A stretch of DNA of 62,216 bases, the filler included, from Collodictyon triciliatum (Eukaryota), in the NCBI GenBank assembly GCA_043381765.1. It is 7 parts of 7 records of this genome, joined end to end, with 100 filler letters (N's around TTAATTAATTAA, not from the genome) between each part and the next. Parts side by side here need not be neighbours in the genome. Positions count along the whole stretch, not along the records: positions 39,739 to 49,768 come from JBHJMP010002815.1; 6 more parts are not named here. One strand, given 5' to 3'. A program made the position numbers and the translations under genes. The notes beneath the pieces were generated by a model. That model had not been told where the DNA came from. It saw only the letters and a program-made list of their open reading frames with translations, and ran no database searches. Positions 5,401 to 59,997 of this stretch are shown in pieces; position 1 is the first letter of the stretch, and each line of letters starts with the position of its first letter.

Positions 5401-6267
5401 TAAATTGTGCTCTTGAATTAGCTTGGATATATGCATAGAAGCTAAATACTGATTACGGTCATATTCTGGCGATTTATATATAGGGGCGAGCCATCGCTGT
5501 TGATGATGTTCGAGTTCGGGGAGTTGCAAAGAAGCAAAAGTGAGGAGCTATGCAACATTAGTATTCATACACATGTCCATACAAATTATGTTAAATATTG
5601 GTGTTAAAACTCAAGCTTTTTGATTCTCTGCTCTAGGATTCAATGCCCTCAGTTTACTCCAAAGTCATCTGAACCATCCGCTGTTGAAGTTACAAAGTGT
5701 TACTTTGAGGTAATAGTGCAATTTCAATCAAATTTAAATAAACGCTCTCTTTTTTCAAACAAAGGTAAATCATTCTATTTTCATCATATTCCGATTAAAA
5801 TATCACTCATAGGAGGGAAAGCTCGATACCCCGATATACCTTCTTCAAACACTTGGTCTTGGTTCCAAGGTTTCCCCAATCATACAGAAGCATGCGTTTT
5901 CATTCTCTTCGAACGACCAAATCATGTGTATCATATTCCTGTCATTTTTCGATTCCGTATACAGGTTGCTGGTCCGGCATTGATTATCGAGGATACTTTC
6001 ACCCTGGTCGTTGAACCGAGATGCTTTGCTACAATCGTCGAAGAGGGCATTGAAATTCAAGTGGAAGAAAAGGTGTCAACCAGAATGAGGTGTGATTTCC
6101 TTTTATAATAAGCATATTGTAGTTCCATCCTCCATTACGTAATCTATTTTATAAAGGTTTTATTTACTTTATTATTATTATTATTATTATTATTATCATT
6201 ATTATTATCATTATTATTATCATTATTATTATCATTATTATTATTATCATTATTATTATCATTATTA

Positions 6268-6364
<97 letters not shown>

Positions 6365-7250
6365 GCCCTCTAGTACCGATCTTGATACCATGCAACTCTC
6401 CATATTCGGACATCGGTTTATGGGTATTGCTGAGCAAATGGGGAGAACCCTGCAGCGTACTTCAATTTCAACAAACATCAAGGAACGTCTTGATTTCTCT
6501 TGTGCGCTGTTTGGGGTGGGGACATACACCTAGGACGATTAATTTTTATTAATTTATTTTAAAAAAAATAACAGCAACCCCCCCCCCCGGCTTTAAGTGT
6601 GCTTTATATAATACAAGAAACTGTAAATTAATAAGACCTTTACTTAATGACCTTTTCTGCTTATAATCGCCAATTTTTTGAACACATAACTGAACCAAAC
6701 CGATTAAATAATAATAATAATAATAATAATAATGAAAAGCCTGATGGAGGTCTTGTTGCGAACGCTCCGCACCTTCCTGTTCATTTGGGCTCCATGTCTG
6801 AAACTGTGAAGTGGCAGATTAATCACTTAGGCAAGTATTAAAATATATATCTCGCTTTTACCCTTTCTTTTTTTTTTTTATGTATTTCTGCCTCAATTCA
6901 GTATATTGTAATACTGGAATCACATCTTTTGTAAACTACTTTATTCTTTGTTCTAAGAATACTTTCTTTTTTATGTCGCGATACTATTAAGGTGAAAGCT
7001 GGAAGGAAGGAGAGGTCGTCGTTACCAATCACCCTCAGGCTGGGGGCAGTCATCTTCCGGATATCACTGTAATTTCACCCGTAAGTTTGCGACTAAAAGA
7101 AAATTCGAAAAGGTTATCCGTGTCATAGTCATTGGTATCTACATTTATTCGCCTTGGAATTTAAGGTTTTTGCTGAGGGAAAGCCGGTATTTTTCGTTGC
7201 GTCACGAGGCCATCACGCGGATATTGGAGGAATTACACCAGGTGTGCAGG

Positions 7251-9229: not shown

Positions 9230-9329
9230 NNNNNNNNNNNNNNNNNNNNNNNNNNNNNNNNNNNNNNNNNNNNTTAATTAATTAANNNNNNNNNNNNNNN
9301 NNNNNNNNNNNNNNNNNNNNNNNNNNNNN
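9230..9329. other. Artificial contig-joining linker (N-TTAATTAATTAA-N); also at about 19377-19476, 29510-29609, 39639-39738, 49769-49868 and 59898-59997
   Basis: The same six-frame stop 12-mer sits in 100-nt N spacers recurring about every 10.1 kb. Confidence 0.95.
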
Positions 9330-11279: not shown

Positions 11280-11903
11280 TCCCCCCTACGCTGTCCGTGT
11301 CTTTCATCATAAAACCTTTTTTAATCACCTAGCCTTCTCAAAAATAAGGAAAGGAAAGGAACTGAAAGGAATCGGTATCGCGATGAGTTGAGATGATACA
11401 AGACTTGCCCATAAAACCCCAAACAAAAAAATGCAGCTTCTTCCCAGTTCTCATCTCACAAACTAAATATTCCAGCTATGGAAAACTAGCTTGGCCGCTA
11501 TTCATCGCTACATTCCGATTATTGCTCGCTCTAAGGCGTCTACAGAACGCTATCCAACCTTCTAGAAGCCTTCCAAAAAAGATGATAGCCTTCACACTTT
11601 CGGCAACCCACTCGCGCGATCGTTTTTTGATCCAGTTGAAAGGTTTCCTCCGCATTACACATATATAATTAAGTGCGGATGCAACAGTGAAGTCCACGAA
11701 GGGTCAGCAGAAAGCCCGCCACAACCTCATTCCACCACAAAGCAGTCACACAAACACTTGCTGAGCAATGAAAGGAACGTGGAGCCCCTTAGAAAAGACA
11801 CACAGAAGCACAACTCTTTGATCATGCAGCCATTCGGCACTAGGCACATCCCTTTCTCTTCCCCCCCCCCCCCCCCTTTAATCTTTTTTTCTTTTCCCCT
11901 TTT

Positions 11904-11943
<40 letters not shown>

Positions 11944-12079
11944 CTTTTCTTTTCTTTTTTCTTATTTTTCTCTTTTCTCTTTTCTTTTTTTCTGCCTCTC
12001 TTTCTGGATCAAACCATGCCACCCCTGGCAGAGTAGCTAACGGTCTCTCGCCCCAGACCCCGGAATCCACCCAGCCAGA

Positions 12080-13141
12080 ATGAGCGCAACGCCAAAGATG
12101 CCATACCGCCTGCTCGGCCCCACCGGGCTGAAAGTCAGCGCGCTGTCCTTCGGGGCGTGGGTGACCTTCAAGAGCCAGGTCGACGTGGAGAACGCATACG
12201 AGCTGATGAAGACGGCGTACGACTCGGGGATCAACTTCTTTGACAACGCAGAGGTCTACGCGGACGGCGACGCGGAGCGCATCATGGGACAGGCCATCAA
12301 GCGCGGCGTGGACGAGAAGGCGTGGGACCGCGAGGATCTTGTGGTGAGCACCAAGGTCTTTTTCGGCCACGACAAAAAGAACGGGCCCAACAGCAAAGGC
12401 CTGTCGCGCAAGCACGTTGTGGAGGGCGTGCAGGCTGCACTGCAGCGCCTGCAGCTGGACTACGTGGACCTTGTCTTCTGCCACCGCCCCGACCCGCTGA
12501 CTCCGATTGCCGAGACCGTCAAGGCCATGCACCATGTCATCGAGCGCGGCTGGGCCTTCTACTGGGGGACCAGCGAGTGGAGCGCCCAGCAGCTGACCGA
12601 GGCCATGCAGGTTGCAGACCGCCTCGGCCTCCACCGCCCCGTCATGGAGCAGCCGCAGTACAATCTCTTCATCCGCCACCGCGTCGAGGTCGAGTATGCG
12701 CCCGTCTACAAGAACTTTGGCCTGGGCCTCACCACATGGTCGCCCCTGGCCTCCGGCGTCCTGACCGGCAAGTATGCAGGCGGCCAGATTCCCGAGGGCT
12801 CGCGCCTGTCTCTGGCCGAGTATGCCTGGCTCAAGGAGAGCAAGACAAGCGGCGCAAACGCCTGGCAGATCGACCGCGCCGAGGCTCTTCGCCCCATTGC
12901 CCAGGAGCTCGGCTGCACCATGGGCCAGCTGGCCATCGCCTGGTGCGCCGCAAACACAAACGTCTCCACCGTCATCCTTGGCGCAACCTCCATTGCCCAG
13001 CTCAAGGAGAACCTCGCCGCCCTCGACATCATCCCCAAGCTCACCCCGGCCCTCATGGCCCGCATCGACGAGGCCGTCCAGACCAAGCCCAAGTTTGACG
13101 AAACCACCATCTACGTAAACTCCATCCGCAAACTCGACTAA
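12080..13141 (+). CDS. Aldo-keto reductase, Kv-beta/KAB1-like (AKR6-type), intronless
   Basis: 353-aa ORF with LKVSALSFGAWVTF, GINFFDNAEVYA, STKVF, GLSRKHVVEG, CHRPD, WAFYWGTSEWSA, EQPQYN and WSPLASGVLTGKY. Confidence 0.93.
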   Translation: MSATPKMPYRLLGPTGLKVSALSFGAWVTFKSQVDVENAYELMKTAYDSGINFFDNAEVYADGDAERIMGQAIKRGVDEKAWDREDLVVSTKVFFGHDKKNGPNSKGLSRKHVVEGVQAALQRLQLDYVDLVFCHRPDPLTPIAETVKAMHHVIERGWAFYWGTSEWSAQQLTEAMQVADRLGLHRPVMEQPQYNLFIRHRVEVEYAPVYKNFGLGLTTWSPLASGVLTGKYAGGQIPEGSRLSLAEYAWLKESKTSGANAWQIDRAEALRPIAQELGCTMGQLAIAWCAANTNVSTVILGATSIAQLKENLAALDIIPKLTPALMARIDEAVQTKPKFDETTIYVNSIRKLD

Positions 13142-13366
13142 CTCATGATAAACCTGCCCGTGACAATGACTCGAGTCGGGTTGCGCCGTGCATCGGTTCT
13201 GTTTTGCTTAGTCTTCGTTTCCCTATTTCGATCTCCCTTTGGTGGTATCGATGCTGTTCCTTCCTTCCTTCCGTCTCTCCCTCCTCCGCCTTATCTCTTG
13301 ATTATTTTTCTCTTTAATTCATGGGAAACAAGATTCAGTATCAAGCTCTGCAGAGACACGGCTTCC

Positions 13367-15555
13367 TCAGAGTGGCAGGCTCAGTGGGTCGCACTTGACA
13401 AAGTACTCGGCTGCATGGAACTCTGCAAGTCCAAGGCGGTCCAGACTCTGCGCCGAGGCCAAGTTCCGGTCTCTCGCGCGCTGCCAAAACTCCCTGGTAC
13501 AAAGTCGTGTGTTTAGAGATAACAGCGTTTGGGACACCTCAAGGCAGGATGGCCTCTGTGCGGTATTGATGAAGCAAACCGCGGATCGCTTCCTGGGAAT
13601 GCAGCTCGATCCTTCTGGGTTTCGTGGCGGTAGATGGCATCAATCTTTCGTTGCAGGTCGTCCTGCGTTGTGGGGGACTTTGTTTACTGGATGTACAGCT
13701 TGATTTCACCCTATTGCATTTCCTATCTCGCTCGTCAGGTAGCAGAGATTTGGAATACGTGAACCTGTGAGAGAGGGACAAAGACGTCGGCCTCATGGAC
13801 ATGATATTCCATCCAGGCTCCACGATATAGCCACACTGTGGGGTTATGTGCGATGCGACCCAAATGAGGCGTGCCCTTACATACATACGGATGGGTGAAT
13901 GTGCAAATCCTTCCATAGATATGCATGTTTCGCGTTTGCATGTATATATTTATGTTTATGTACACAAAAAGCTGCCTACCATCTCCCATTGAGAACCTGC
14001 AGGGAAATCGTCCGTGGTTCGCTGTCTCTTTGTAGCGGGTATATCTGTATCTTGCACGTTGTTTGTCCTCACGTGTCTTGCCAATGCTTCCCGAATGGCA
14101 TAGTAGCACATCCTCTGTGGCGCCAGAGAAAGAGGCATAGGGGCGAGGGTGAGAGGAAATGAAAACTGCCTGCTCTGTTGCAAAGCAGTTAAGAATATGC
14201 ATATACATACGTGTGTTCCGTGCGGGTCTGAAAGGTCACCGGCCATGAAAACATGGCTCGGCTGCACTTGTTGCAAAAGCCCGAATATGATGGCGATATC
14301 GCCCTCTCCAATCGGATTCTTGCGTGCAGTCCCCGTCTCTGCGGTATGTAGAATAGGGACATATTGGCAAGGTGTAAGGTATGGATGACAGCTCGGATGT
14401 CTCTGTGTTTTAGAAGAGATGATATCGACAGGGGTGGAAAGGCTCGCGAGTGGGGGCTGAGTTGTGGTATCTTTGGGTGGCCAAGTGAGAAGTTTTGAGA
14501 TGGGTATAGTCTCGTACGATAGAACGGCAAATCCAAGAACTTGACGGCGTCGTGTTTGAGGCCTATCACTTCGACTGCAGCCATGGCTTCGGTGTAGCGA
14601 ATGTTTGCCTTGATTACCATGTCACTCTCATTAAAATGCCCTGGGAATTGCCTTTTCCTTCAAACAAAACAAAAACAAAAAAAAATCCAACAGAAGCCAA
14701 GACTAATAGAGGAAAGCAGAGGCACCATCCGTGAATACACCTGGCTTTCAAATGGTCGGCGCCATGAATTATCAACACCACACCGAAACCCCCTTCCTTC
14801 ACTTGAATCGAATAAAGGAAGGGAAAAAAATAACTGTCAACCTTAAGCTTTTGAATAACCAAAGGGTCGGGGTCTCCAGGCTTTTTCTTCGAGAGGATGT
14901 CCAGGATTTCGTCGCCCTTCTCCTGTAAATCTTGGATTCCTTGGGATTCAAGGAGGTGGCTTTGAGACAATTTTGTAAATCGCAAGTGACGAATGAGGTC
15001 CTACAAAGCAAATGATACTGTTGGTCGTTTATTTCATCATCACTCGTACTGAAAGTTGTAGTAGAGAAATCAATTAGGTTTCAGGGATTTTCAAAAGCAA
15101 GCAGTACGAGTGAAGAAAAACAATCATCCTAATTAAAAGATAGCAAAGTGAAAGAAGACAGTTAAAATATAATTCCTTTTTGACAAACCCTGTCCAAGAC
15201 AGAAACAGAGCCATTTGTGCAATATGCAGTGATGCATTCATTCCCGGATTTGATTATCTTGTGCATTAGTCCTCCCATACATATGACATCAGCATCGGGA
15301 TGGGGACTGAAAATCAAGACCTCAAATGTGCGAAATAAAATCGATGAGTTTCGTGAAATAAAATGAAAAATGAAAAATGAAAAATGAAAAATGAAAAATG
15401 AAAAATGAAAAATGAAAAATGAAAAATGAAAAATGAAAAATGAAAAATGAAAAATGAAAAATAGAAAAGAAAAGAAAATAAAAAAGAAAAAGAAAAGAAA
15501 AGAAAGAAAAGAAAAAGAAAAAGAAAAAAAAAAAAAAAAAGAAAAGAAAAAGAAA

Positions 15556-19376: not shown

Positions 19377-19488
19377 NNNNNNNNNNNNNNNNNNNNNNNN
19401 NNNNNNNNNNNNNNNNNNNNTTAATTAATTAANNNNNNNNNNNNNNNNNNNNNNNNNNNNNNNNNNNNNNNNNNNNATATGTTCTTAC

Positions 19489-29509: not shown

Positions 29510-29819
29510 NNNNNNNNNNNNNNNNNNNNNNNNNNNNNNNNNNNNNNNNNNNNTTAATTAATTAANNNNNNNNNNNNNNNNNNNNNNNNNNNNNNNNNNN
29601 NNNNNNNNNCTAATAATAATACTAATAATAATACTAATAATAATACTAATAATAATACTAATAATAATACTAATAATAATACTAATAATAATACTAATAA
29701 TAATACTAATAATAATAATACTAATAATAATACTAATAATAATAATACTAATAATAATAATACTAATAATAATACTAATAATAATACTACTAATAATAAT
29801 AATAAATTTCACCATTCAG

Positions 29820-39005: not shown

Positions 39006-39938
39006 CTTCTATAAATTCTGCATAGAAACAAGACGTTATATTCGGTATGGTTGATTCCCACAGGCTCTTACGTCCAGTCTTGAAAAATACTTGCTGGATT
39101 CCTCTGCCTGGCTGTGCACTCGCCTCGCGAACATGCTTGGGAAGAAATCTTTCGATGCCCGATGCTTAGAGCTGATTCATGAGGTGAATGTTCTTTGGGC
39201 TTCCGAAACATTCGAAGAAAGAATCCATTTGCGTATAAAGGATTCGTTATTGAATTTTCCATAAATGAATAATAGTCTGAAATTATACAAGTTATTTCTA
39301 AATTAGTGCCAACTATGAAAACAATCCGCGCAAAGAGGGCAGTGGGAAAGTAGAGTGTGCGTGCGAATGAAATAGAAACTCAAATTAATGGTGCAGAAGT
39401 GGCATTGCATTGACACGCTTGGCTGTAGACAGTGATAAAAAAAGTATATATATAAAAAAGAAAAGCCGCATTCAACTCAGGAAATAGTATCAAGAACAAC
39501 GTTTGTCACGCAACTCAGGTGGACTCAAAGAGTCAGAAGAATTGAATCGACCAGAAAACTCTTATGTTCTGTGACTAAAAACAAAACAAAAATCACAAAA
39601 CAAATAAAACAAAAAAAAAAAACAAAAAAACAAAAAAANNNNNNNNNNNNNNNNNNNNNNNNNNNNNNNNNNNNNNNNNNNNTTAATTAATTAANNNNNN
39701 NNNNNNNNNNNNNNNNNNNNNNNNNNNNNNNNNNNNNNTACTATTACTATTACTATTACTATTACTATTACTATTACTATTACTATTACTATTACTATTA
39801 CTATTACTATTACTATTACTATTACTATTACTATTACTATTAGTCGCATATGAAAATATTACGTTTAAATGTGTGTTATATTGCGAGAAAATACGCGTAA
39901 TATGGATTAATGAGCAATTTTAATACAAAACATTTTAC

Positions 39939-45459: not shown

Positions 45460-46575
45460 ATGGACCCGCAAACTCCCGTAGAGAGAAGCCCTCCGATAGC
45501 AGCCGAATACTCACCTGATAGGCTCACATCACCCACACGCCACCGACCTCCTCCTATTACCACAAAATCTGCGGTGAACTTTACTCTGCCCACACAGAGC
45601 GAGCCGAAGGCACCGATACCCTCAGCATTGCCTTTTGGTCTTCCGACTCCGTCCTGGATGAATCCAGTTTCTGTCGGCGAATCCCGAACCATTTCATCAG
45701 GTCCACCCATGCTGAAGCCGGCTCGTCTTCAAAGGTCTGATGACGGAATCTTCCAGTACGCCCGCCCGTCTTTCTCGCCGCTGGGTGATGTTTTTGTCGC
45801 TGGTGTTTTTGTGGAGGCTTCACAGCAATACTCTGGTGTTGCGGAGCGAACTGCTCTTTACAGCCCATCCAAGCCTATCGAACAACCTCCAGGTCACAGC
45901 CCTGACGAAAGGATTCATGAGTCATTCTCGATGAATAATATTGCCGGGTCTGCTGGGCAACAGTCTGCTCTGGAACACAACACTGCTGACAACAAAACAT
46001 TCGTTGCGAGCCAGCAACTTGAATCCCCGAATGATTTCCAGGGTCTGCCCAACGCTGATATTGACGAGCAGAAGCAGCAATATATGGATTATCTTCGGAG
46101 CTTGTCTTCTGCTCAGTTATCGCTAGCTCATAAATCAATGAGGAATCTGGAATCTGGGAATATCCCGTTGTATCGGCTGTCTCCAGACCCGGACCGGCAT
46201 CTTGTGGGTCGAATCATATACAGATTTTCTCTTCAAATTCCCGAGCATACGTTGAGGATTTTGGTAATAACGTCATTCTTGTTTAATCGTACTCAAGTCA
46301 TTCTTCTTCCTTTTTTTTATTCCCCCTCGCCCAGTTTACCCAAGGACTTCGTCTCACTTTATACTCGATGAACATAGGTGATTCTCTGGCACTTTTTATA
46401 CGCTATTTCTGTGGTTGGCTCTGTCATTGAATTCTACATTGGCACACTACCCCAATTTTACAGTGATTCGTATACTGGAAACTGGTTGGTGGCCAGTCAA
46501 CTTCGTTTTTTTTCGCTTCATAAATTATTGATTTTTTTTTAGTATCCTCAAAATTCGTATGCAGTACTTGGCTAT

Positions 46576-46666
<91 letters not shown>

Positions 46667-49432
46667 TTAGATATGATGTGATTTTTTGAATCTTTAATTC
46701 AACAAAATTCATGGCAAGCGATTTATTAAACTACGTAGGGGAATATTGGATTACATATTCTCAATTGTTTTTACAATCGATCTGGTCTTCCGATTCATGA
46801 TGACACCATGGCGAAAATTCCTTACGGGTGGGTTAATATGTGAATTCTTCACAAAGGAAATACATGAGCATTAAATTTTAGATGGGTAACGTTTTTTTTT
46901 TCTTTTTGCAGATGTGATGAATTATCTCGACATACTCGCACTGCTTCCATTTTACATGTCACTCTTCACAATGGTTGGCCCTCTGATACACTTTTTTTTT
47001 ATTTTAAGATAATCTTTAAATAATACCAACCAAAACTGCAAATGACTATTTTCTCCCGAAAGCAACTCTAGTGTAATTTTTCTTCGTAATTATATGAACG
47101 AAAATATAAGGGAGTCCATAGCTTAACTCTCTTCCGAGCCATTCGTTTGCTTCGAATCTTTCGGATATTCAGGCTCTTTCACGTCAATCGCTATTGGAAA
47201 GGCTCATCGGTAGATTCATCAATATACCATCAATATATGTAAATCAAGAGAATCAAGTATTCAATACAAATCAGCTCCAGACCTAACAATATAAACTATT
47301 TTCTCTCTTTTGACTGTATTATTAATGAAATTCAGGCAATATTCGATACATTTCGTGCGAGTCAACATATGGCTGTCGTATTGATATATTACATGGCCAT
47401 ATTTATTACAATAATGTCTGCCTGTGTCTTTTTCATAGAAAGGGGGGAATGGAGTAGTGAAAAATCCCGATGGGAGACAGATGGAAATAGGAGGTAAATT
47501 TAATCCCAGTTATTATATATTTTCTATATATCAATTCATTATATATACACCTGATGATACAAAGTAGTATACTCTAAAAAAATTTATAAAATAAAACCCC
47601 CAAAAGTAAATTTGACTCTCTTTTGACTGCTTACTGGTGGTGTGTTGTTACCGTTGCCACAATTGGCTATGGTAAGTTTAATACGATAAAAAAAATTAGA
47701 AAAGTCCGCATATGCACTAATGTATTCCCATTTATCCTACAGAAAGTTTATTATATTTTTTACTCTAAAGCACTCCCTTATCGATTGTAATAGGGGATAT
47801 TGTGCCAAAGACTTCGTTGGGTCGATTTTTTGGAATCATCACAATGCTCACAGGAGTTCTTGTATCTTTTAGTATAACTTATAGGAATTAAAGCATGAAA
47901 TTTTATCGTATTCATTACATGTCTAATTAGATGGTAGCCTCCATTATATCAGTAATTGGCACTCACTTCAAACAAGAATGGCATTTAAAGAGATTTCGTG
48001 TTGGGGTAAAGTTTGACGAATATCACATTTACCCGCTTAATCAATTGACCGAAAGGAAATTTCATTTAGGACAAGCTCATATTAAACGCATCCAGAAATA
48101 AAGCGGCAAGATCAGGCTATCAAGTAAGAGCAAGAATTCATCGAAATGTATCTATTACTTGAATATGAACTCAATTTACCCTATATTTGATGCTGTTTCT
48201 AGACGACCTTTCGATATAAACTACACCGCTTCCTTGATGGGCAAGTGCGTGGATTTTATGTGAGTAATTATTATAATTATATTTTATAGCTAGAAACATC
48301 TGCCTCGGTATATTATTGAAAGTGATTTTACTTTGAATGGAATGAAGGAAAAATCATATTAAATGATTTGTTATACTAGAGTCGAATGTACCACGTAACC
48401 TTGATATTACTTGTTATCTGTTCGATAATATTTATGATAATTCAAAGTTATGAAGCTTTTGATGAAGACAGAAATGATATGAGTTGGTGGGTCTAAATCT
48501 TTTCAATTTAAAATATTTTTGTTGTAATTTCTATCATGCTCGTAACATTCTTTATCTATTCCATCTAGGATAGTGCCTGAATATATATACACGATTATAT
48601 TCACATCGGATTTGTTATTGCGCATAATTACGGCCCCTAACCCAGTGTCATATGTGTTCAGTTAGTGATTTTATTATATCGTAATAAGTGCAATATTTCT
48701 TATCAAAACCACATAATAATTTGCACTTTATACAGAACCTAGGTCATTTTTCGATTTGGTTGCTCTGCTCCCTTTTTATCTTGACTTTATATCAACCAAG
48801 GTACTTTTCAACCCCTCGATATCTTGCTCGTCTTAATTATTTTTTTATATCTAACACTTAATTTTTCATCCAATTTCCAATTTGGACCCATATACCGTAT
48901 ATAGGTCATTCAAGGATTTCCAGCTTGGAGAGCGATAAGATTGATGGGAATATTTCGTATATTCAGACTAGGAAAGTATTCAAAAGGATTTAGGGTTTGT
49001 TGGTCTTGAAAAGGATGTATATCATGCAAAAAGAATAACATCACCAAAGCTCACCAGAAAGAAAACACATACTAATGTATTTTTCTTTTAGATTATAATG
49101 GAGACTATTGTGAAATCGAAGCACGCTGTATATCTATTGATCTACGTTATCTTGATTGACCTTTTCGTTTTTTCATCTGCCTTGTATTATGCCGAGCGCG
49201 GGGAGTATCATGACAATAGGTTCTGTCGGTCTTATGAAAACAAAATATGCGAGCCAAGGTTTTCCTCTTTGAAATGCATTCTTCATTATTATTTTACCAT
49301 TAAACACAAAATTCGTGATTATTTTTATATTAAAAAAAGACGAATGAGTACCGATACATATAAATAGTCCGTTCGGGAGTATTCCTGCCTCGTTTTGGTG
49401 GGGAATAATTACAATTAGTACTGTTGGATTTG
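45460..49432 (+). CDS. Voltage-gated K+ channel with two tandem 6TM units; 17 visible exons, 3' truncated
   Basis: Unit I: S3 NYLDILALLPFY, S4 FRAIRLLRIFRIFRL, pore YWWCVVTVATIGYGD and S6. Unit II: S3 FFDLVALLPFY, S4 WRAIRLMGIFRIFRLGKY, pore SIPASFWWGIITISTVGFG. The linker exons are stop-free and in frame. Confidence 0.85.
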
Positions 49433-49941
49433 GTTTGCATTCACAATCTTAAAGCTCACCATTCGCAAAAACTTTATTAAATATGAAATTTGATAGCAAG
49501 AAACGAAAAAGGAATTAGTTAAGTGTCAAATAAATAAATAAACAAATAAACAAACAAATAAACAAACAAATAAACAAACAAATAAACAAACAAATAAACA
49601 AATAAATAAACAAACAAATAAACAAATAAATAAACAAATAAACAAACAAATAAACAAATAAATAAATAAATAAACAAATAAACAAATAAACAAATAAATA
49701 AACAAATAAACAAATAAACAAATAAACAAATAAACAAATAAACAAATAAACAAATAAACAAATAAACANNNNNNNNNNNNNNNNNNNNNNNNNNNNNNNN
49801 NNNNNNNNNNNNTTAATTAATTAANNNNNNNNNNNNNNNNNNNNNNNNNNNNNNNNNNNNNNNNNNNNTTGATGAGTTGTGAACGATTCCAACGTCCATG
49901 TTTTTTTTTTTTTTTAAAAAAAATAATGTATTGGTGTGTAG

Positions 49942-51587: not shown

Positions 51588-52481
51588 CTAGCCCAGATGG
51601 ACATGGACATTCTCGACATGGGCCCAGGGCACAACAATGAAGCCGAGAGACCGCATGTACGACCGGGCCGGTTTGCTGCCTTCGCCGCGGTGGGGCGATT
51701 GCACAATAGTCTCTTCCTGCGCGTCTGACAGAAGCAGATTGCGCTGGCGGTCAAAGCAAGCGAGTGGGCCGCTCAGAATCCGCCCGTCCCGCAGCTGCAC
51801 ACGCACCACCTTGTTGAGATACTCGCGCACACGCGCAATGCTTTCGGGCTCTGCCTGCCCGGCGCGGTCCGGAGTCACCCAAACGCTGGCGTCGATGCGA
51901 GCAGGCTTCTCCAATGCCTCGGCCTGCTCGGTCTCAGCAGCCTGTGCGCTTTGATCCAAGGCAAACGGGTTGGGCGCGCGTTGGGTGGGCGGCACAAGTA
52001 GGCTTGGGTGGATAGGAAAGGGGAAAATCTGGCGGAAATCCATGGGCTTTTGCCGGTGGCCTTCGTGGCCGTGGTCGTGATTGCATGGGCCGTCGTGTGG
52101 GTGATGATGTTGATGACCGTGTTGATGATGGCTGCTGCGTTGAGGCCCATGTTGATGGTGGCCGTGGTCGTGATTGCAGGGGCCGTCGTGTGGGTGATGA
52201 GGTTGATGGCCATGTTGATGATGGGTGCTGCGTTGAGGCCCGTGTTGATGACCGTGATCGTGACCGTGATCATGATTGCATGGGCCATCGTGTGGGTGAT
52301 GATGTTGATGACCGTGCTGATGACCGTGTTGATGACCGTGATCGTGGCCGTGATCATGATTGCATGGGCCATCGTGTGGGTGATGGTGGCTGTGATCGTG
52401 GCCTTGCTTGGAGGAGCGGCTCGAAGGGCGTTGCGACATTCTGGTTTTCCTGCAGAAAGTTCTGGGCTTAAGAGTTGCCAT
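51588..52481 (-). CDS. Sm/LSm-domain protein (NAA38/Mak31-like) with an N-terminal His-rich repeat, intronless
   Basis: C-terminal YLNKVVRVQLRDGRILSGPLACFDRQRNLLLSDAQE...RSLGFIVVPWAHVENVHV* is an Sm fold most like the NatC small subunit or SmB. The start is ATG 52481 or 52439. Confidence 0.8.
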   Translation of the reverse strand: MATLKPRTFCRKTRMSQRPSSRSSKQGHDHSHHHPHDGPCNHDHGHDHGHQHGHQHGHQHHHPHDGPCNHDHGHDHGHQHGPQRSTHHQHGHQPHHPHDGPCNHDHGHHQHGPQRSSHHQHGHQHHHPHDGPCNHDHGHEGHRQKPMDFRQIFPFPIHPSLLVPPTQRAPNPFALDQSAQAAETEQAEALEKPARIDASVWVTPDRAGQAEPESIARVREYLNKVVRVQLRDGRILSGPLACFDRQRNLLLSDAQEETIVQSPHRGEGSKPARSYMRSLGFIVVPWAHVENVHVHLG

Positions 52482-53098
52482 TCGTATCAATGAGTGATAA
52501 AAAAGAAGAAAGAAGAAGCAACTAGTAAAGGGAGGAAAAGAATCGGTGACTGTGATTGCTCCGGTTGAACCTGTTGTACGCGAGAAGTGTCTGTGACTTT
52601 TCTTTCTTTCTTTTTTTTCTTTCTTTGTGTGTGTGCGTGGCTCTTTCTTTTGATCTGATCGAGTGGTGCTCAAACCTTATCTCGAAAATCGCAAAGTCTG
52701 AATGTGGCGTATTACCAAAAATGCTTGCAGTGATTTCTTTTCTGTCGTAATTTGCGCTTCCAGATTCCAGAGACATTTGTTCTGGGTTTGCATCGACATG
52801 ACAGTGTCTCAAAAAGGCAGCACAAACATTTGTTTTTGTTAAAACTAAGGTCGAGGAGGCGCGCTACGTCTTTGTTCTGGGTTAGCCGCAGTATTTATAG
52901 ATGGCCTGTTCGATTGCGAGGAATCTTCAGGTATGTTGAATTCTTTAATGTGGCGGCCAAGAATCAAGACATACATAACATTTAATAGACAAACGCATAT
53001 GAACCACCTTTGCGTTCGCATTTGGTTCTGAATAAATTTTAATGTTCTTAAATAAATATTAGAAGAAAACCTAAAGGACAGAGAACCCGACCAAGCGA

Positions 53099-59644: not shown

Positions 59645-59997
59645 CTATATCAACGACAGAGAAAGTCATTTTGAGTATCGATGAGCTTCTATGTACACAC
59701 ATATTTCACTCGAGGCCATTCGTAGTTTACAATTACAAAGCGATAATAACAATAACAATAACAATAACAATAACAATAACAATAACAATAACAATAATAA
59801 TAACAATAACAATAATAATAACAATAATAATAACAATAATAATAACAATAATAATAACAATAATAATAACAATAATAATAACAATAATAATAACAATNNN
59901 NNNNNNNNNNNNNNNNNNNNNNNNNNNNNNNNNNNNNNNNNTTAATTAATTAANNNNNNNNNNNNNNNNNNNNNNNNNNNNNNNNNNNNNNNNNNNN

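Follow-up and report, generated by a model that had tools for sequence, protein, structure and literature searches.

The locus at positions 45460-49432 (+ strand) of a 62,216-nucleotide (nt) stretch of DNA of Collodictyon triciliatum (assembly GCA_043381765.1), called the window here, on balance probably represents one gene, which would encode a predicted two-repeat (2 x six-transmembrane, 2 x 6TM) Kv-like K+ channel. A first-pass annotation of this DNA proposed that one spliced frame joins two voltage-gated K+ channel units, with the selectivity filters TIGYG and TVGFG, into a natural tandem. Tracing of the exons, a Pfam scan and an alignment of the two units confirm the presence of both units and of both K+-type filters within 45460-49432, far above what chance would give, while their fusion into a single polypeptide stays a prediction from the genomic sequence. 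The fused gene is favored because the spacing between the two units is that of an intron, because unit II is intact, and because channels of this kind have been published.

The exons of the locus, all of which are located on the + strand and bounded by GT..AG introns, were traced by hand and then checked by a script. Exon 1 (45460-46263) begins with the start codon, encodes a 268-amino-acid (aa) Pro/Ser-rich cytoplasmic N-terminus and ends in phase 0 just before S1. S1 of unit I is encoded by the exon at 46378-46484, which ends within a Trp codon in phase 2 and gives a hydropathy peak at residues 267-285. A 254-nt intron containing a (TTTA)n array (46565-46668) separates this exon from the S2 exon (46739-46827), which ends in phase 1 and matches Pfam Ion_trans at profile positions 37-65 (E 0.0017). 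It is followed by the S3 exon (46912-46973), ending in phase 0, by the S4 exon (47111-47209), matching Ion_trans at 90-114, and by an exon for the S4-S5 linker, S5 and the turret (47336-47493), ending in phase 2. The pore helix and filter are encoded at 47607-47671, where the codon for the last filter Gly is split in phase 1 and Ion_trans_2 is matched at 24-41 (E 0.00023). The first half of S6 is encoded at 47794-47861 (Ion_trans_2 43-63, E 0.0006), and its second half, together with the start of the linker between the units, at 47931-48005, which ends in phase 0 at the donor GTAAAG at 48006. A proposed linker intron of 197 nt (48006-48202) leads to a proposed 19-codon exon (48203-48259), which would form the rest of the linker and the segment before S1 of unit II; its acceptor follows a pyrimidine-rich tract and its donor is GTGAGT.

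Unit II repeats this arrangement. Its S1 exon (48380-48486) is 107 nt long, as is its counterpart in unit I, and likewise ends within a Trp codon in phase 2. The S2 exon (48569-48660; Ion_trans 39-64, E 0.016) ends in phase 1, the S3 exon (48736-48800) ends in phase 0, and the S4 exon (48905-48994) matches Ion_trans at 91-117 (E 0.13). The exon for the S4-S5 linker, S5 and the turret (49092-49258) ends in phase 2, and an alternative phase-2 donor would end it at 49219 and give a shorter turret. The exon for the pore helix and filter (49368-49432) ends in phase 1 and matches Ion_trans_2 at 24-41 (E 0.011). The next intron begins at 49433 and runs into an (AAAC/AAAT)n array (49530-49768) that reaches the contig end. 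Thus, unit I is complete from S1 to S6, and unit II extends from S1 to the pore and is cut by the contig end at 49768. This array is the probable cause of the break in the assembly, which falls in the intron that follows the filter of unit II.

Both units belong to the Kv-like voltage-gated K+ channels, with K+ selectivity and voltage gating inferred. When the exons are scanned one by one, 7 of the 14 translations match Ion_trans or Ion_trans_2, 6 give no Pfam match, and exon 1 gives only a chance-level match (E 0.31). The matches are colinear with the profiles in both units; in unit I, S2, S4 and the pore fall at profile positions 37-65, 90-114 and 170-190. Each match scores 12-21 bits, which is below the curated cut-off, as is expected for pieces of 21-33 aa. 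The order S1-S6 with a pore loop between S5 and S6 is seen in the whole of unit I, by Pfam matches and hydropathy peaks, and in unit II from S1 to the pore. The filter TIGYG of unit I is encoded by 47657-47671 and 47794-95, the last Gly being split across the intron, and TVGF and the first base of the last Gly codon of the unit II filter TVGFG are encoded by 49420-49432; both filters fit the K+ selectivity pattern T-[VI]-G-[YF]-G. S4 of unit I carries five Arg at every third position and another Arg and a Lys, giving seven basic residues (Arg or Lys). S4 of unit II also carries seven, and the alignment places a Gly at the position of the third regularly spaced Arg.

Comparison with solved structures points in the same direction. 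The best matches of the S4 exon profile are Kv1.3, Kv1.2 and Shaker (E ~1e-5), and the S5 exon profile matches Kv1.3 and Shaker with E values of 7e-5 to 4e-4. The two profiles are colinear and equally spaced on Kv1.2 residues 289-313 and 319-354, and the S4-S5 linker is not shortened. A long S4-S5 linker of this kind marks Kv-like rather than CNBD-type channels in the passages of PMC7576140 that bear on this point. The N-terminus had been described as Pro/Ser-rich and devoid of a T1 domain. This description is accurate: exon 1 contains 12.3% Pro and 12.3% Ser and matches no Pfam family at E <= 0.1 and no T1/BTB_2 domain at E <= 1.

The two units are homologous. Unit I and unit II are identical at 62 of 196 aligned positions (32%; blastp E 5e-31), and at 22 of 74 positions (29.7%) from S5 to the filter. 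The first-pass annotation claimed six introns at matching positions, and all six hold in both position and phase when the units are aligned: within the Trp codon after S1 (phase 2), before S3 (phase 1), after S3 (phase 0), after S4 (phase 0), in the turret (phase 2, splitting a Ser codon in both units) and within the codon for the last filter Gly (phase 1). A seventh matched intron, in phase 0, lies directly before S1. Because homologous units share their intron positions, a unit that already contained introns was duplicated at the level of DNA, and the origin by internal duplication that had been proposed is borne out by the homology and by these positions. A 6TM unit with introns would have been duplicated in tandem to give the gene, and the copies would then have diverged over a long time. 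From S5 to the filter (49092-49432), unit II is identical at 28 of 62 positions (45%) to an animal-type Kv exon recovered from metagenome data (L003:3414-3602). Unit II is thus nearer to an animal-type Kv channel (45%) than to unit I (30%), and the split between the units is therefore very old, or else their rates of change differ.

Whether the duplicated units are translated as one chain depends on the sequence between 48005 and 48380, in which the proposed path joins exons 47931-48005, 48203-48259 and 48380 onward from phase 0 to phase 0. This path gives at least 723 stop-free codons. Unit I would be spliced through a cytoplasmic linker of ~35 residues into unit II, the linker being encoded by the end of exon 47931-48005 and by exon 48203-48259. 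The latter exon contains no Met codon and is preceded by an in-frame TAG, and it therefore needs a donor upstream. The distance from the last exon of unit I to the first recognizable exon of unit II is 63-197 nt, which is within the range of intron lengths in this gene (69-254 nt); the one other readable pair of open reading frames (ORFs) on the same strand, in which an NHL-repeat ORF ends at 11391 and an aldo-keto reductase (AKR) gene starts with an ATG at 12080, is separated by ~690 nt. The linker of ~35 aa matches no Pfam domain. The first-pass annotation described the linker exons at 47931-48259 as stop-free. A phase-compatible, stop-free path does exist, but 47931-48259 is free of stops only when 48006-48202 is spliced out.

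Several observations at this junction weigh against a single chain. Without removal of the 197-nt intron, unit I reads on to an in-frame TAA (48099-48101), and this TAA lies inside an AATAAA (48097-48102) that is the sole one in 47800-48400; 23 such hexamers occur in ~9.7 kb when the two simple-repeat arrays are excluded. TAA acts as a genuine stop codon in this assembly: the AKR gene terminates with it at the same place as its homologues, and reassignment of this codon was rejected on that ground. Apart from this one TAA, the upstream frame is open through 47931-48260. Within the proposed intron it contains one stop in 65 codons (the other two frames have 5 and 6), and the GC content of this intron (0.34) is above that of most introns (0.19-0.31). 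The open frame and the higher GC content would agree with a coding tail here and, after it, a second gene from the ATG at 48165, which lies within the proposed intron. On a splice matrix built from 13 introns, the sites of the linker rank with or below the lowest training scores: the donors at 48006 and 48260 score 3.3 and 1.6 (training donors 3.2-10.7), and the acceptor at 48202 scores 4.6 (training acceptors 3.8-11.9). Many other stop-free paths also exist, and S6 of unit II and all parts downstream of it lie beyond the contig end, leaving the second unit incomplete.

These observations are the substance of a possible, though doubtful, alternative, that the locus consists of two adjacent genes that arose by tandem duplication, the products of which co-assemble or form separate tetramers. 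Gene 1 would encode a single-unit Kv-like subunit of 540 aa, ending at TAA 48099-48101 and polyadenylated after the overlapping AATAAA. Gene 2 would start at ATG 48165 in the same frame and be spliced from a donor at 48249 (GTGGAT) to the S1 exon at 48380, giving a very short N-terminus. Unit I does give a complete, stop-terminated ORF of 540 aa, the hexamer is located on that stop, the path from the ATG to the donor is stop-free, and no stop interrupts the frame between 48102 and 48260. The donor at 48249 scores 3.4, which is no worse than the donors of the fused path; the 13-intron matrix is overfitted and does not separate the rival paths. On the other side, only 63 nt lie between the stop and the ATG, which leaves no room for a 3' untranslated region and a promoter, as compared with ~690 nt in the other same-strand pair. 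No spliced leader or other RNA family is found in the window by Rfam, and the strong GTGAGT donor at 48260 would be left unused. Nor is 48102-48248 marked as coding: its codon log-likelihood ratio is 3.9, as compared with a control mean of -2.6 (standard deviation 6.5), when stop codons are excluded. A codon-usage log-odds signal that seemed to favor the upstream frame was obtained with stops counted, and it disappears when stop codons are excluded and stop-free controls are used. When the candidate frames before S1 are compared with the PDB, one has no match and the other has only chance matches to antibodies.

The upstream frame has a single TAA in 110 codons, which could also be the trace of a broken fusion: a nonsense change or an assembly error at 48099 would have disrupted a formerly fused gene or one long linker exon (47931-48248), leaving unit II untranslated or decaying. 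This reading is very improbable. The openness of the frame is statistically unremarkable, because stop-free windows of 49 codons are common in non-coding controls (645 window positions). Moreover, unit II contains no frameshift or stop over six exons, and its S4 charges and K+ filter are kept. Because it is intact at 32% identity to unit I, with its functional motifs preserved, unit II has long been under selection and must be translated.

The same hexamer admits one locus with two products, such that splicing of the 197-nt intron gives the tandem of units I and II, and retention of this intron with cleavage after AATAAA gives free unit I. The AATAAA at 48097-48102 could then be the site for a short, single-unit isoform. 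Unit I is structurally complete in either case, and a polyadenylation hexamer does coincide with the stop of the retained intron. We only infer this arrangement, however, and from the density of such hexamers the coincidence is expected by chance about 1 time in 20; the two-product reading is very unlikely. The fused gene with the 197-nt intron removed remains the preferred interpretation of the locus.

Because unit II is cut, the chain might be longer than two units. It is highly improbable that it continues past the contig break into a third and a fourth 6TM unit and forms a four-domain, CNBD-less Kv-type channel with GYG and GFG filters. Unit II is cut inside the intron after its filter and the other contigs hold no further channel exon, so that the window speaks neither for nor against this extension, and the tandem Kv-like channels described in the passages of PMC7576140 have two repeats. 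If it were true, a four-repeat chain of Kv-like units would parallel the Nav/Cav body plan, but with K+ selectivity.

The first-pass annotation regarded the tandem architecture as new and took multi-repeat chains to lack the GYG filter. Neither statement survives comparison with the literature. Two-repeat Kv-like channels were reported in some protists in 2020, in the passages of PMC7576140 that concern them, and the premise on the filter is outdated by these channels and by CNGK, the four-repeat K+-selective cyclic-nucleotide-gated channels of animal sperm and choanoflagellates (same passages). The repeats of the published tandem channels are at most 30% identical to each other, repeat 1 and repeat 2 fall in clades of their own, and the S4 charge content is unequal between repeats; according to the same passages, such channels are not found in ciliates, apicomplexans, diatoms, phaeophytes, labyrinthulomycetes or foraminifera. 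A full-text literature search finds no further paper on such tandem channels and, as far as it reaches, the kind is known from predicted sequences only, without functional or structural study.

The predicted channel of C. triciliatum resembles those described in the passages of PMC7576140 in having two Kv-like 6TM repeats one after the other, the first not followed by a CNBD, TVGY/FG-type filters, ~30% identity between repeats and non-equivalent S4 segments. Identity between its units is 32% over 196 aa and 29.7% from S5 to the pore, set beside the 30% or less of the published kind. It differs in that the single chain is predicted here from the splicing logic of the genomic sequence and repeat 2 breaks off at the contig end. 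The intron positions shared between the repeats are seen here and are not discussed in the passages of PMC7576140 consulted. The animal Shaker-family channels (Kv1-Kv4) give the best structure matches for S4 and S5 and share the S4-S5 linker of Kv1.2 length and the GYG filter; unlike the locus described here, they have a T1 domain, which is not found here, and do not carry two units in series. The four-transmembrane, two-pore (4TM/2P) K2P channels are also alike in having two non-identical pore loops per chain, so that a dimer makes the pore, and a GYG filter in the first loop paired with GFG in the second is typical of them. K2P channels have no S1-S4 voltage sensors, whereas each pore unit here has its own. 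TPC channels share the dimeric 2 x 6TM plan in one chain. Their filters are not of the GYG type, and their long linker between repeats carries a regulatory domain, with EF-hands in plants. The filters TIGYG and TVGFG and the linker of ~35 residues without a Pfam match set the C. triciliatum channel apart from TPC, to which it does not belong. CNGK channels are alike as multi-repeat K+-selective chains (passages of PMC7576140), but they have four repeats with a C-linker and a CNBD after each, and the ~35 residues between units I and II leave no room for a CNBD.

Searches for homologues used exon-sized queries against word-indexed protein collections. Exon 1 has no homologue among longer proteins; the S5 exons of both units, used as a profile, give 15 candidates and a 50-aa contiguous ORF around S4 gives 34, none of which scored. 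Exon-sized queries thus retrieve no protist homologue, and no close relative is found in the collections searched. A metagenome scan with the S5 exon of unit I gives 154 pattern matches, none of which is confirmed. The same scan with the S5 exon of unit II gives 567, which lead to four loci (L001-L004). Each of the four holds one S5-pore-S6 exon of an animal-type Kv gene, with 27-37% identity to the model in tblastn, and has no bearing on the fusion. No further channel exons are found elsewhere in the 62-kb window, other contigs included.

The window also contains an intronless aldo-keto reductase gene of the Kv-beta/AKR6 type at 12080-13141 (+), which is GC-rich (GC 0.58 in the bin 12001-14000, as compared with ~0.35 around it). 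Its product matches Kv beta-2 with E ~1e-100 and AKR6D1 with E 8e-111; an exact look-up of this protein finds nothing, the best representatives are only 56-58% identical to it, and the third best, from Phytophthora megakarya, is 52% identical. Animal Kv-beta docks on the T1 domain. This partner site has no counterpart in the channel studied here, in which BTB_2 is not matched.

The window as a whole is a chain of contigs of ~10 kb, joined every ~10.1 kb by N44-TTAATTAATTAA-N44 linkers (9230-9329, 19377-19476, 29510-29609, 39639-39738, 49769-49868 and 59898-59997). Because these linkers separate contigs, features that flank them are not genomic neighbors. The channel locus is on the contig at 39739-49768. 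The N run at 49769-49868, which follows the channel contig, joins unrelated contigs and is not a sizeable gap, and the sequence after 49869 belongs to an unrelated contig with the 3' end of a biotin-dependent carboxylase gene. The end of this carboxylase ORF lies tail to tail, with ~320 nt between, with an LSM-domain ORF (51588-52676, -) that encodes a long His/Gly/Gln/Pro-rich repeat with many HGHQ-like units. The window is AT-rich, and its introns are short and of the GT..AG type, which marks the DNA as eukaryotic. At 6112-6552 (+), long homopolymer-coding runs (poly-Leu/Ser, poly-Cys or poly-Ile, depending on the frame) adjoin an oxoprolinase (Hydantoinase_B) exon and may be a low-complexity intron or insert. 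A radial-spoke gene is present in the window, so that the organism builds flagella.

If the two units are translated as one chain, the channel is most naturally read as a dimer, in which two 2 x 6TM chains would form a pseudo-tetramer with the TIGYG and TVGFG strands alternating around the pore. Each pore unit would be driven by its own voltage sensor, and the two sensors would be non-identical. They would probably contribute unequally to gating, because S4 of unit I has five regularly spaced Arg and that of unit II has Gly at the third of these positions. S4-S5 linkers of Kv1 length would give the channel a domain-swapped geometry.

Covalent linkage of Kv-like repeats would fix the order and stoichiometry of the subunits and leave the pore strands and the sensors free to specialize. 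If the stop in the retained intron is used, one gene would be able to yield a free subunit or, alternatively, a fixed tandem. Covalent linkage of repeats is also the presumed step from tetrameric channels toward TPC and Nav/Cav. To this the locus adds genomic evidence, because its seven shared intron positions show that a unit already containing introns was duplicated to give the repeats, and C. triciliatum may represent another host lineage for tandem Kv-like channels.

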